Shown piece by piece: positions 38,432 to 49,943 of a DNA stretch of 64,000 nt; the first letter of the stretch is position 1; the number at the start of each line of letters is the position of its first letter. Made by a program: the position numbers and the translations under genes. Under the pieces are notes generated by a model, which saw only the letters and a program-made list of their open reading frames with translations, did not search any database and was not told where the DNA came from. This stretch comes from Brassicibacter mesophilus. GTDB taxonomy: Bacteria; Bacillota; Clostridia; Tissierellales; Proteiniboraceae. The DNA lies in assembly GCF_050433385.1 (NCBI RefSeq), contig NZ_JBNPXI010000003.1:159939-223938 (forward strand). Direction: 5' to 3'.

Positions 38432-38549
38432 ATAGAAAAAAATTTCACAAAATTTTAAAAAATGTATTGCAGTTTAAAAAATATGGTGATATAATTAAAA
38501 TGCAGTAAAAGTGGCAAACAATGTTATAAAAAAAGGAGGCCGTGAAGTG

Positions 38550-38642
38550 ATGATTACTATGTTAGGTATTACCAATTTAAACAAAATTGAATATACAGCA
38601 AAAAATAACGGCCTGCGAATAGGTGTAAAGGTTAATCTATAA
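38550..38642 (+). CDS. small ORF A, 30 aa (MITMLGITNLNKIEYTAKNNGLRIGVKVNL), divergent member of tandem peptide family
   Basis: AAGGAGG 10 nt upstream of ATG; shares IEYTAK block with ORFs B-E. Confidence 0.4.
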   Translation: MITMLGITNLNKIEYTAKNNGLRIGVKVNL

Positions 38643-38675
38643 TTGTTTTAATTTTTATTATAATTATGATTTTAC

Positions 38676-38839
38676 AGTCGTAGGTACATAGTCTGCGATT
38701 TTTTGATTTATATTTTAATGCACTTTTTGTGTCTTTTGGAATAATATAGTCGTGGGCTTAATGCTTACGACTTTTTTATATGTTTTCTTGTATACAATAA
38801 AGTAATAAAAAGTCGTAGAGTAGCTATCTGCGGCTTTTT
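38676..38839 (+). repeat. three tandem hairpin+U-tract repeat units (AGTCGTRG-N9-13-CTGCGR/ACGAC-TTTTT) spaced 72 and 63 nt
   Basis: R1 38676-38706, R2 38748-38777, R3 38811-38839; each forms 6-7 bp stem (with G.U) + T5-6. Confidence 0.5.
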
Positions 38840-38897
38840 ATTATGCCTTTGATTCAAGAAAATGTAACTAATGTAAAAAAATAAAGGAGGTGATATA

Positions 38898-38990
38898 ATG
38901 ACTGATTTATTGATGAAATTTCTATTTTTTTCTAATTCAAAGAGAGACTTTGGTTTTGAAGAGTACAGCAAACTAGAATTAAGAAGATAG
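38898..38990 (+). CDS. small ORF B, 30 aa (MTDLLMKFLFFSNSKRDFGFEEYSKLELRR)
   Basis: AAAGGAGGTGA 7 nt upstream of ATG; conserved KRD.G..EY.KLE.R block. Confidence 0.6.
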   Translation: MTDLLMKFLFFSNSKRDFGFEEYSKLELRR

Positions 38991-39019
38991 GTAACATTAT
39001 ACTTTAGGAGGTGATAAAT

Positions 39020-46926: not shown

Positions 46927-47083
46927 TGGCACATTACTTTAAAGCAACAATATAAAAAATTAATTAAATAAGGACGATTTGTTTAATTTATTCAATTTAT
47001 ATATTGATTTTTTATAAGTTTACTGATAGATTTAAAATATGAAATAATTTATAATAACTCAAAATTTAAGGGGGTGTACCACA

Positions 47084-48514
47084 ATGCAGGTAGGTATGTC
47101 AAAGTATTTACAAGCTCAAAAACAATTATTAAAGGAGCTAGTTTCAGCATTATCAAAGGATTTTAAATACGTTTCTGTATTAGGAACAGATATAAGTGGT
47201 AAGCAGTACATAGTTCACAGAACAGGTGCAGGGTTAAATGATTCTATGTGGGCAGAAAGAGGATTTGTGGTAAGAGTGCACAATGGAACTAACTATTCAG
47301 AGTTTTCATTTAATCAAATATCAAAAGATAGTTTGAACTCAATAATTAAAAAGATACATAGTAAGGTACTAAACGACATTAATAGCCTAAAAGAACATTC
47401 AATTGATTTGAGTAATTATCCTGTTATTGAAGAAGAAGCAATAACAGATAGCTTTTTTGGTGAAGTACAAATACTTCCTGAAAGCGTGAGCTCAAAAGAA
47501 AAGCTTCAGAAAATGACTTCAATCAAGGATAAAGCGCTTAAAAGTACGGAATTATTAATAGATATGAAGGTAGCATATGAAGAAGTACAAGTATCCAAAG
47601 TCTTTGTTTCTCAAAATAAAGATCTTGAACAGTCTTATATTTGGGGACAAGGTGCACTGATGCCAATTGTTAGAAAAGATGATAATACAAAGTATTATTA
47701 TGAAAGTATATCGGGGCTAAAGGGAGTCGAAATATTAGATGAAATGGAGTTAAAATGTGAAGAAACAGTGTCCTATGCTGAAAAACTTCTTGATGCGAAA
47801 AGAATGATACCTGGAGAATATGATGTTATTTGTAATCCTGAAGTTTCAGGATTAATAGCACATGAGGCTTTTGGACATGGGGTAGAAATGGATATGTTTG
47901 TTAAAAACCGCGCAAAGGCAGTTGAATATCTAGGAAAGCAAGTTGCATCGGAGCTAGTGATAATGCATGATGGTGCTAAATCAGCAAAGCAGGTTTCATC
48001 TTACCTTTTTGATGATGAAGGAGTAATAGGAACAGACACTGTAATTATTGATAAAGGAATATTAAAAACTGGAATATCAGATTTATTATCGTCATTAAGG
48101 CTTAATACAAAGCCTACTGGAAATGGAAAGAGAGAGTCATTTGAAAGAAAGGCATATGCGAGAATGACTAATACATTTTTTGCAGCAGGAGAAGATAAGC
48201 TTGAAGATATGATAGCTTCCATAAAATATGGTTACTTACTAGAAAACTTTACTAGTGGTATGGAAGATCCAAAAAACTGGGGAATCCAGTGTATGATACT
48301 TGCAGGTAAAGAAATAAAAGATGGTAAACTAACTGGTAATATAGTATCGCCAGTTATAATGACAGGATATGTCCCAGATGTTTTGCAATCGGTCTCGATG
48401 GTTTCTGATGAAGTTAAGTTATTTGGAGCAGGAGCGTGCGGTAAAGGACATAAAGAGTTCGCAAAAACCGCGGATGGTGGTCCATATATTAAAACAAGAG
48501 CGAGGTTGGGATAA
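47084..48514 (+). CDS. tldD: TldD-family metalloprotease
   Basis: HEAFGHGVEMD (HExxxH) metal site and C-terminal GAGACGKGH conserved Cys motif; 476 aa. Confidence 0.85.
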   Translation: MQVGMSKYLQAQKQLLKELVSALSKDFKYVSVLGTDISGKQYIVHRTGAGLNDSMWAERGFVVRVHNGTNYSEFSFNQISKDSLNSIIKKIHSKVLNDINSLKEHSIDLSNYPVIEEEAITDSFFGEVQILPESVSSKEKLQKMTSIKDKALKSTELLIDMKVAYEEVQVSKVFVSQNKDLEQSYIWGQGALMPIVRKDDNTKYYYESISGLKGVEILDEMELKCEETVSYAEKLLDAKRMIPGEYDVICNPEVSGLIAHEAFGHGVEMDMFVKNRAKAVEYLGKQVASELVIMHDGAKSAKQVSSYLFDDEGVIGTDTVIIDKGILKTGISDLLSSLRLNTKPTGNGKRESFERKAYARMTNTFFAAGEDKLEDMIASIKYGYLLENFTSGMEDPKNWGIQCMILAGKEIKDGKLTGNIVSPVIMTGYVPDVLQSVSMVSDEVKLFGAGACGKGHKEFAKTADGGPYIKTRARLG

Positions 48515-49818
48515 TGATAGATAAAATTAGAGAAATATTATTAAACTCAAGAGAAGTAGATAGTTGGAAAGTAAACGAAAGCAAGATTGAATCAAGTGAA
48601 TTATTCTTTATTAAAAAAGAGTTAGATATGAATCGAGCTAAGGAAGTACATCACTTTAAAGTTACAGTATATAAGGATTTTGAAGAAGAGGGTGTTATGT
48701 ACAAAGGTTCTTCCACAACAAACATTTATCCTACTATGAGTACTGAAGAGATAGAAAAGGCAATTGAGAGTGCAGCTTTTGCAGCTTCATTTGTTAAGAA
48801 TAAACATTATCCATTAGTGAAGCCTTCGGAAGTAGCTATGTCCAATATTAAAAGTGAATTTTCAAAGGCTTCTATTTCAGAATGGTTGCCTAAGGTAACT
48901 GAAGCCATATTTGGCTCAGATAAATATGAAAATGGAAGTATAAATTCATCTGAACTCTTCCTTGAAAAAATATATACTAGGATAATCAACTCTGAAGGTG
49001 TTGATGTATCATATGACGGATACAAAGGGCAAATAGAGTTGATAACAAACTGGAAAGAAGAAGGAGAAGAGATTGAACTATATAAAGATGTTAAATTTGC
49101 TGATTTCAATAAAGAAGATATAATCGAATGTGTAGAAGATATGCTTAAAATGAGCAAGAATAAGGCTATAGCAAAGTCCACGCCAGCATTAAACAATATA
49201 CCAGTTCTTTTATCTGGTGAGCCTGTTAAGGAGTTTTTTAGCTATTATTATGAGCAAGCTAACGCTCAACTTGTATATGAGGGCATATCTACAGCAAAGG
49301 TTGGAGAATGTATTCAAGGAAAAGAAATAAAAGGAGATAAGATCAATATCACTGTTGATCCACTTTTAAAAACATCAACATTATCAGCTCCATATGATGA
49401 AGATGGATATCCATTAAAAGCAGTAGAGATATATAGTGATGGTATACTAGAAGGATATTGGGGAAACAATAGATTTTCCAATTATTTAAATATTGAACCT
49501 ACGGGAAATATCAGAAATATTATAGTTCATGAAGGAAGTAAAAATATAGACAATTTGAAAAGTGAACCGTATCTTGAACTGGTTGCATTTTCTGATTTTC
49601 AGATGGATACAATGACTGGAGATTTTGCAGGTGAAATAAGACTAGGATGGTATTTCGATGGAAAAGATTTAACTCCAGTAACTGCAGGTTCTATATCAGG
49701 AAATATCAAAGACGTACAACAGAAAATGTATTTTTCTAAAGAAATTCAACAGTTAAATAATTTTAAAGGTCCAAAAACAATTAAGCTGCAAAATGTAAGT
49801 ATAGCAGGAAATGAATAA
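48514..49818 (+). CDS. tldE: TldE/PmbA-family protein (non-catalytic partner of TldD)
   Basis: 434 aa, TldD/PmbA fold without HExxxH; start overlaps tldD stop. Confidence 0.75.
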   Translation: MIDKIREILLNSREVDSWKVNESKIESSELFFIKKELDMNRAKEVHHFKVTVYKDFEEEGVMYKGSSTTNIYPTMSTEEIEKAIESAAFAASFVKNKHYPLVKPSEVAMSNIKSEFSKASISEWLPKVTEAIFGSDKYENGSINSSELFLEKIYTRIINSEGVDVSYDGYKGQIELITNWKEEGEEIELYKDVKFADFNKEDIIECVEDMLKMSKNKAIAKSTPALNNIPVLLSGEPVKEFFSYYYEQANAQLVYEGISTAKVGECIQGKEIKGDKINITVDPLLKTSTLSAPYDEDGYPLKAVEIYSDGILEGYWGNNRFSNYLNIEPTGNIRNIIVHEGSKNIDNLKSEPYLELVAFSDFQMDTMTGDFAGEIRLGWYFDGKDLTPVTAGSISGNIKDVQQKMYFSKEIQQLNNFKGPKTIKLQNVSIAGNE

Positions 49819-49825
49819 AGATATT

Positions 49826-49859
49826 AGGGTTTTGATATTTATCAAAGCCCTTTCTTTTT
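49826..49859 (+). terminator. rho-independent terminator
   Basis: AGGGTTTTGATA-tt-TATCAAAGCCCT followed by TTCTTTTTG. Confidence 0.7.
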
Positions 49860-49943
49860 GAATATTAATTAGTAAAAGAAAATAAGTTTACAAAACACAA
49901 ACGATTGTATATAATGTTTATATAATAGCAAACATTATAGGGG

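Follow-up and report, generated by a model that had tools for sequence, protein, structure and literature searches.

A tandem small-peptide cassette with putative triple-terminator control in Brassicibacter mesophilus and its relatives

In a 64,000-nt stretch of Brassicibacter mesophilus DNA (hereafter the window) we found a compact cassette of small-peptide genes at the head of a block of enzyme genes on the same strand. Our preferred reading, to which we assign a probability of roughly 0.45, is that this is a self-contained small-protein cassette that would be controlled by a transcription attenuator and would have the peptides themselves as its end products. Its parts follow one order in all lineages covering the stretch: a promoter, a Shine-Dalgarno (SD) sequence with a short open reading frame (ORF A), three U-tailed hairpins, one to six peptide genes and a trailing hairpin. 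A class IV aminotransferase gene always precedes the cassette, either directly or at a distance of one or two genes. Features of the window are on the plus strand unless stated otherwise. Loci of other genomes carry labels made of L and a number, among them L105 from Proteiniborus sp. DW1, L109 from Sporosalibacterium faouarense and L110 from Dethiothermospora halolimnae.

The peptide genes and their family

An earlier note on this DNA had reported five small ORFs in tandem, each behind a strong ribosome-binding site. All five are present, and an SD sequence precedes every one of them (GGAGGTGAT in B and C). Downstream of ORF A, four of them form the array: peptide B (38898-38990; MTDLLMKFLFFSNSKRDFGFEEYSKLELRR), peptide C (39020-39115; MLYLVDQLVKQSSNKKDHGYELFAKLELRLF), peptide D (39146-39238; MLGLLELIVSGFGLKKDIGLDEYLKLEFRK) and peptide E (39272-39367; MLYNLIFTKGFEMKQDRGLFEYHKLECRNKT). 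Their alignment bore out that they share a motif, which reads K-[KRQ]-D-x-G plus [EL]-[YF]-x-K-L-E-x-R, and contains eight invariant columns (M1, K15, D17, G19, K25, L26, E27 and R29). A degenerate DNA pattern of the motif had 3 matches in the window, with 0.00 expected.

A codon test was conducted between the window and a relative that is about 90% identical in DNA (L100, one of L100 to L104). For the four genes pooled, there were 24 synonymous and 13 non-synonymous differences, giving proportions per site of 0.354 (pS) and 0.044 (pN), a pN/pS of 0.12 and a highly significant synonymous excess (Fisher p = 4e-11). Taken singly, B carried 7 synonymous differences and 1 non-synonymous, D carried 8 and 0, and pN/pS was 0.21 for C and 0.41 for E. 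The gene for the adjoining M29 aminopeptidase had a pN/pS of 0.11 in the same pair of relatives. These results show that B to E are a coding paralogous family under purifying selection, with a constraint equal to that on the M29 enzyme. Peptides B (E = 1e-14) and C match the family hidden Markov model (HMM), and a 30-residue member of the 90% cluster of peptide B is annotated as a hypothetical protein of Brassicibacter mesophilus. Contigs near-identical to the window carry the same genes. One further candidate, an ORF of 17-27 codons at 39370-39453, was rejected, since it lacks an SD, falls on the trailing hairpin and does not keep its ATG in L100.

The earlier note had not recognized the peptide family, and we likewise found no match to it among the models of Pfam, NCBIfam or PHROGs; a concatenate of B to E used as a homology query matched no protein. 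An exhaustive profile search over 1.84 billion representative proteins (E up to 0.001) returned 10 matches, of which eight are small-ORF calls of the family (seven of 29-31 residues and one of 81) and two are long proteins with repeated short matches. The 81-residue entry, P0009 (L087 268-513), consists of two adjacent peptide genes fused across a TAG stop by the gene caller, and the locus does not translate to P0009. Further family loci (L083/L084, L086, L087, L105, L108, L109 and L110) came from the contigs of the profile matches and from those of homologues of a downstream acetyltransferase, the GNAT1030 family described below. The cassette occurs in at least eight lineages, namely Brassicibacter, Sporosalibacterium, Dethiothermospora, Proteiniborus and four uncultured ones, and the family, limited to a small set of related anaerobes, is confined to Thermohalobacteraceae, Proteiniborus and uncultured relatives. 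In viral contigs the DNA pattern of the motif had 0 matches, and its 12 matches in metagenomes of the Joint Genome Institute (JGI) were all chance ones by the HMM.

Across the family, the consensus K-[KR]-D-x-G-h-E-E-Y-x-K-L-E-h-[RK] follows a variable N-terminal half of 12-20 residues. The peptides are hydrophilic: their grand average of hydropathy (GRAVY) is mostly -0.2 to -1.5 and is negative in 23 of 24 members. Net charge ranges from -1 to +6, roughly neutral to basic, with values close to 0 in Brassicibacter. The Brassicibacter copies have hydrophobic N-terminal halves, in which the GRAVY of the first 13 residues reaches 1.78; in Sporosalibacterium, Dethiothermospora and L108 this half is hydrophilic. 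No signal peptide was found in family members. AlphaFold2 modelled peptide D as a single helix of residues 2-29 with a predicted local distance difference test (pLDDT) score of 71.6.

Copy number varies from 1 in Proteiniborus to 6 in Dethiothermospora. Three consecutive peptide genes in L110 (5311-5626) are near-identical 107-nt tandem duplicates, one of which has an Arg to Gly change in the K-R-D motif, so copy number is evolving now. The first array member of L086 (151-210) has a premature stop (MFEFLAQQTMLIETINKKE*), which indicates that single copies decay while the array persists. The last small ORF follows a pattern of its own. It ends in N-K/N-T in the window (39359-39370, the NKT tail of peptide E) and in L083, L086, L108, L109 and L110, with orthologues of peptide E as terminal members in L086 and L108, and its stop codon sits in a conserved string, ACUUAGC. 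Little of the family motif is left in this last ORF in L083, L105, L109 and L110, although the tail is still there. Retention of the tail and of ACUUAGC at the array end points to a constraint at the nucleotide level there.

The putative leader ORF and the tandem terminators

Upstream of the array, we read a promoter from the sequence at 38467-38495, with a -35 element TTGCAG (38467-72), a 17-nt spacer and an extended -10 element TGaTATAAT (38487-95). It was missed by a consensus scan, its -35 element matching 3 of 6 positions. The arrangement TTGCnn-17-TGnTA(T/C)(A/T)AT stands at the same place in L083, L105, L108, L109 and L110, and the consensus ahead of the ORF A ATG is a TTGCnn-17-TGnTATAAT-type promoter followed by AAAGGAGG(C/U)CG(U/C).

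ORF A (38550-38642) has 30 codons and encodes MITMLGITNLNKIEYTAKNNGLRIGVKVNL. Compared with L100 its pN/pS is 0.19, and of the 11 differences 8 fall on the third base of a codon. Every lineage has an ORF of 24-30 codons at this position, and the codon numbers of the residues L10-[NKT]-K12-x-[EK]-[YN] are unchanged in five out of six distinct lineages. The SD of ORF A (GGAGG, 38535-38543) lies 7-10 nt 5′ of its ATG, three terminators follow the ORF, and both features are conserved in six further lineages. The earlier note had treated ORF A as a divergent member of the array. We place it elsewhere: three terminator-like hairpins part it from B to E, and it would belong to the leader of an attenuator.

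These hairpins are T1 (38676-38705; AGTCGTAGGT / GTCTGCGATT plus a T-run), T2 (38748-38778) and T3 (38811-38839), all of them listed by a terminator scan. T2 is present in all lineages covering the stretch, and so is T3 in those covering it, including the partial loci L086 and L087. The segment 38300-39600 holds four terminator-like sites, with 0.2 expected. The arms of the three hairpins are alike (AGUCRYRGG / CCUGCGRCU); as a genome-wide repeat the arm AGTCRYRGR was rejected, having 6 matches versus 2.7 expected, three of which are T1 to T3.

Folding and an RNAalifold consensus predicted a further helix, P1, in which AGGCCGU (38537-43), overlapping the SD of ORF A, pairs with ACGGCCU (38608-14) inside ORF A. 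This 3′ arm belongs to a switch segment, r2 (38608-38618), where it overlaps a candidate antiterminator strand, GCCTGCGA (38611-18; RNA GCCUGCGA), that is complementary to the 5′ arm of T1. The predicted r2:T1 duplex has an energy of -10 to -16 kcal/mol, compared with -4 to -6.5 for shuffled r2. The segment starts 7-8 codons after K12 of ORF A, and the L-N-K-I-E-Y block (codons 10-15) ends 5 codons before it.

For seven lineages the arms were extracted by hand, the four strands were aligned without gaps and pairs were counted. P1 was paired in 98% of cells, with 2 pairs showing compensatory changes, and T1 in 100% of cells in the 7 lineages, with 3 such pairs. For the OFF state (P1 and T1 together) 99.2% of cells were paired and 5 pairs had changed on both sides. 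The ON state (r2 with the T1 5′ arm) was paired in 94.6%, and 4 of its 8 pairs had changed on both sides, while slid controls reached 12-36%. L110 rewrites all elements in concert: its P1 is AGGUCGC:GCGACCU, its T1 is UUCUAGGU:ACCUAGGA, and its r2, GACCUAGAA, still pairs with the T1 5′ arm over nine positions (GACCUAGAA:UUCUAGGUC). When the first 45-60 nt were held unpaired, folding gave the antiterminator in the window and in L105 (two of four lineages). In Rfam the window had no match at the gathering threshold, and 38380-39480 had no credible match at E up to 10. From sequence comparison we conclude that ORF A is the putative leader peptide of a transcription attenuator, whose 1:2, 2:3 and 3:4 pairings are conserved with covariation in seven lineages.

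At the other end of the cassette, a trailing hairpin (39403-39431; GCAGATACTATT/AATAGTATCTGC) has no T-run, and the terminator scan lists only a minus-strand site there. It is overlapped by an extended -10-like TGcTATAAT (39429-37), 33 nt 5′ of the M29 start. Similar AGCAGATG..CATCTGCT hairpins come after the arrays of L105 and L108, and the hairpin with its -10-like arrangement also precedes GNAT1030 in L105. This region may serve as an internal promoter, or else as an element for processing or stability. Between the hairpins of the cassette itself and 49826 the scan gave no convincing plus-strand terminator; the first such site after the cassette, at 49826-49860 (scan site 49826-49851), lies just 3′ of the last enzyme gene, TldE. 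Since the trailing hairpin has no T-run and the next terminator is at 49826, read-through into the enzyme genes is plausible. Co-transcription of the peptides with these genes is therefore possible, and the enzyme genes may also have a promoter of their own.

These elements suggest the following mechanism for the attenuator-controlled cassette. The extended -10 promoter would start a transcript whose first element is the leader-peptide attenuator. In it, the SD region of ORF A (r1) would pair with r2 to form P1, the alternative partner of r2 being the T1 5′ arm, with which it would form the antiterminator. If ORF A is free of ribosomes, or if one has run to its end and covers r2, T1 would form and transcription would stop there, with T2 and T3 next in line. 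If a ribosome is held at the L-N-K-I-E-Y block, which we take as the likely stalling site, it would separate r1 from r2 and free r2, so that T1 is bypassed; with its P site at codons 13-15 of ORF A, the footprint of a ribosome would reach just up to r2. The read-through RNA would carry four very strongly initiated ORFs for soluble, helical paralogues of about 30 residues, made in a burst when the attenuator opens. We take them to be small cytosolic proteins whose C-terminal module would serve to bind a conserved partner in the cell, and not precursors tailored by the adjoining enzymes. Transcription would probably run on into M29 through TldE, given the absence of a T-run in the trailing hairpin.

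The downstream genes and competing explanations

The earlier note had listed the genes that follow the array, and Pfam agreed with the whole list. They encode an M29 aminopeptidase (39470-40579), a major facilitator superfamily (MFS) transporter of the Mef/EntS efflux type by NCBIfam (40610-41872), a 1032-residue protein with a GNAT domain and an uncharacterised region (GNAT1032; 41895-44993), an Amidohydro_2 protein (45005-45883), a 302-residue, MshD-like two-domain GNAT (46018-46926; Pfam and NCBIfam) and a TldD/PmbA-like pair (47084-48514 and 48514-49818; Pfam and NCBIfam). The first four are tightly spaced, with gaps of 30, 22 and 11 nt. The enzyme genes (39470-45883; 46018-49818) are uncertain members of the cassette. 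Pfam covers only the first ~140 residues of GNAT1032. In a structural model (pLDDT 87), the GNAT domain is followed by ~850 residues of predicted all-beta sandwich domains, for which Foldseek against the Protein Data Bank (PDB) returned only generic beta-sandwich matches, with a template modelling (TM) score no higher than 0.16. The protein belongs to the GNAT1030 family, more than 1000 homologues of ~1030 residues and constant length across Bacillota. Two M3 oligoendopeptidase genes flank the region in the window, at 28780-30468 (plus strand) and 50858-52687 (minus strand). This M3 pair, M29 and TldD/E give the region an unusual wealth of cytosolic peptidases, as would suit an organism that ferments peptides.

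The set of genes behind the cassette was found to differ from lineage to lineage. A convergent M3 oligopeptidase gene closes the block in the window, L086, L105, L108 and L109. Between cassette and M3 the window holds M29, MFS, GNAT1032, Amidohydro_2, GNAT, TldD, TldE and DUF2087; L105 holds GNAT1030, Amidohydro_2, GNAT, TldD and TldE; L108 holds GNAT1029, TldD and TldE; and L109 holds M29, GNAT1029, Amidohydro_2, a chemoreceptor, GNAT, DUF2087 and one more gene. In L083 the cassette is followed by M29 and then the contig end, and in L110 by GNAT1028, several GNATs, Amidohydro_2 and one radical S-adenosylmethionine (SAM) gene. In L086 no genes lie between cassette and M3; the array and the M3 gene, which is 78% identical to window 50858-52687, have a common bidirectional terminator at the array end. 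Of all the lineages, only that of Brassicibacter was found to have the MFS gene. The TldD/E pair is lacking in L109, in the L110 stretch examined and in the interval between array and M3 in L086. In the window, L105, L107, L109 and L110, an Amidohydro_2 gene comes next after a GNAT1030-type gene or is separated from it by one gene. In L110, at 9271-15087, an island of at least seven GNAT genes, one Amidohydro_2 gene and one radical SAM gene lies 3′ of the cassette.

The suggested synteny of the peptides with the downstream genes held in part: the cassette lies 5′ of a GNAT1030 homologue in five lineages (the window, L105, L108, L109 and L110), but the cargo varies and L086 has none. The converse, enzymes occurring without small ORFs, which counts against the earlier proposal, was borne out in part. 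M29 homologues in 80 other genomes had neither the peptides nor the other enzymes alongside; a scan anchored on M29 found no cassette and no family member among these 80 loci, including that of Caloranaerobacter at 77% identity. M29 thus proved a poor anchor for locating the cassette, and the neighbourhood of GNAT1030 and the aminotransferase gene the proper one. GNAT1030 occurs without peptides in Anoxybacter, where it stands alone, and in Brevibacillus, where it accompanies Amidohydro_2; no family member was found in either locus. Taken together, the comparison of these loci shows that the cassette is the constant part and the cargo the variable part. The L086 array indicates that the peptides persist without enzyme genes beside them and, lying directly before the convergent M3 gene, that there the peptides themselves are the payload.

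Several points weigh against our reading of an attenuator-controlled cassette with peptide end products. In two lineages, L100 and L083, no antiterminator came out of the constrained fold, and L109 has a weak r2:T1 duplex. The compensatory changes come largely from one divergent lineage, L110, on hand-extracted arms of seven sequences. ORF A has no run of one regulatory codon. We also considered a domino model for passing T2 and T3, in which the 3′ arm of each terminator pairs with the 5′ arm of the next; its T1-T2 energies fit in all seven lineages, but it fails for T2 to T3 in L108 and L109 and is kept as an idea only. The helix model of peptide D is only of moderate confidence. Finally, we discounted the recurring GNAT1030 adjacency as inherited synteny, confounded by shared ancestry, and it could reflect a functional link.

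Of the alternatives, one survives best, though we consider it unlikely. The earlier note had suggested a maturation or export locus for ribosomal peptides, and in a scheme of this kind each peptide would be a ribosomally synthesized and post-translationally modified peptide (RiPP) precursor with a variable N-terminal core and a conserved C-terminal follower that the downstream enzymes recognize. M29 would trim the N-terminus, acetylation would fall to the GNATs and removal of the follower to Amidohydro_2 or TldD/E, and MFS would export the product. The tandem precursors with conserved C-termini and variable N-termini fit it, as do the GNAT-rich cargo with the radical SAM gene of L110 and the lack of a strong terminator before 49826. 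The cassette lies directly 5′ of and co-directional with GNAT1030 in five lineages, and with M29 in three. The parts list is also analogous to bottromycin biosynthesis, with its aminopeptidase, amidohydrolase, MFS protein and follower peptide. However, Pfam and NCBIfam searches of all neighbouring genes found no class-defining maturase (such as YcaO, Lan, radical SAM/SPASM or ATP-grasp). The radical SAM gene occurs in one lineage only and matches maturase families weakly, at ~25 bits against cut-offs above 260, far below that of any family, and the C-terminal region of GNAT1032 is a generic beta-sandwich. The supposed cores vary in length and are often highly charged. The enzyme set is different in every lineage, with MFS confined to the Brassicibacter one; peptides without adjoining enzymes are found in L086 and enzymes without peptides in many genomes. 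What stands of the earlier proposal is a real, conserved and co-directional peptide family; the maturation enzymes expected of it are lacking and those present are not conserved with the peptides. The note had offered a leaderless bacteriocin-like system with immunity as well, but there is no bacteriocin ATP-binding cassette (ABC) exporter or immunity gene, and many family members have a hydrophilic N-terminal half and a net charge of 0 to +6, which sets them apart from leaderless bacteriocins and phenol-soluble modulins. Neither a RiPP nor a bacteriocin reading of the locus is supported.

Less likely than tailored precursors, in our view, is that B to E act in cis as upstream ORFs, their products being arrest or relay peptides whose C-terminal residues work in the ribosome tunnel to tune the genes downstream. 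Arrest peptides typically combine a variable N-terminus with a C-terminus conserved near the stop. The peptides are about as long as the exit tunnel, the E-Y element is common to ORF A and B to E, and the array is placed between attenuator and enzyme genes. But L086 has nothing downstream to regulate, and copy numbers of 1-6, including the recent near-identical duplicates of L110, are unexpected for a cis-regulator. The motif stands 1 to 10 residues ahead of the stop, depending on the member, and no alternative RNA structures were seen between the ORFs.

A long shot, which we place after the cis-acting peptides, is that the cassette is a portable sensor of translation stress joined to its effector. 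Ribosome stalling on ORF A, caused by a compound that binds the tunnel or by a metabolite, would set off a burst of tunnel-length peptides. Through their conserved C-terminal 16 residues these would act in turn on the ribosome or on the compound that had stalled it, and the same switch would drive a variable cargo of the detoxification type (GNATs, a Mef-like pump, amidohydrolase and peptidases). If true, this would be a new kind of inducible defence module built on small proteins.

Lowest among these alternatives, and improbable in our judgement, are leaderless secreted amphipathic peptides, akin to phenol-soluble modulins (PSMs) or aureocin A70, which would be exported by MFS and silenced by the triple terminator because they are toxic. 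Tandem leaderless paralogues of ~30 residues with an SD for each, hydrophobic N-terminal halves in the Brassicibacter copies, a Mef/EntS-like MFS gene two genes downstream and the tight transcriptional control would all agree with secretion. Against it, charge is near 0 in Brassicibacter, the N-terminal halves are hydrophilic in Sporosalibacterium, Dethiothermospora and L108, and the conserved part is a highly charged module and not a membrane-active face. No ABC exporter or immunity gene was found in the window, L105, L108, L109 or L110, and MFS is absent from the other lineages. A type I toxin-antitoxin pair was rejected: the peptides have no segment with the length or hydrophobicity of a membrane span, and no Rfam antitoxin RNA matched.

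Relation to known systems

The predicted switch resembles the trp, his and thr leaders and the short-ORF attenuators of Bacillota resistance genes, in which a short ORF precedes an intrinsic terminator and three pairings are mutually exclusive. As in those classical attenuators, read-through would be expected here only with a ribosome held in the leader ORF. It differs from them in that region 1 is the SD of the leader ORF itself, in the conserved L-N-K-I-E-Y block that takes the place of a regulatory codon run, in the three tandem terminators with shared arm sequences, and in a first payload that is a peptide array and not a set of biosynthetic or resistance enzymes.

For the array, the nearest likeness is to the staphylococcal psm-alpha operon and aureocin A70, where tandem leaderless paralogues of 20-30 residues, each with its own ribosome-binding site, are made from one transcript, as is predicted here. 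Dedicated ABC exporters serve those peptides, which are hydrophobic or cationic amphipathic helices, whereas the present ones are hydrophilic, with a conserved charged C-terminal module, no co-conserved exporter and no sequence similarity to them. The bottromycin clusters (BotP, BotAH and BotT) share the variable N-terminus and conserved C-terminus and, in the window, the nearby aminopeptidase, amidohydrolase and MFS genes. In contrast to these clusters, the present loci lack YcaO and radical SAM methyltransferase genes, the aminopeptidase is of family M29 instead of M17, and the enzymes are not co-conserved with the peptides. A TldD/PmbA-type pair on the same strand as the peptides recalls microcin B17. 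The TldD/E proteases of Escherichia coli have a housekeeping role, and their genes stand apart from the mcb genes; the cassette differs in having no McbBCD-like synthetase, and the pair is missing from several lineages.

A tempting RiPP cluster, with aminopeptidase, GNATs, amidohydrolase, TldD/E and MFS, can thus be mostly inherited synteny with a variable cargo. Functional small proteins of fewer than 35 residues are rarely annotated, and this family is called in only a handful of assemblies, yet it is kept in at least four genera. The elaborate switch offers an experimentally tractable handle on the condition that induces the peptides, and the cassette is a natural example of how terminators in series might give very tight control. 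Literature on the genera and on tandem terminators with leader peptides yielded nothing on this cassette. Both the regulatory principle and tandem small-peptide operons are known, and it is their combination that has no match in Rfam, Pfam, NCBIfam, PHROGs or the literature searched. Set beside these systems, the locus is a new, narrowly distributed small-protein cassette under an unusual, predicted triple-terminator control.

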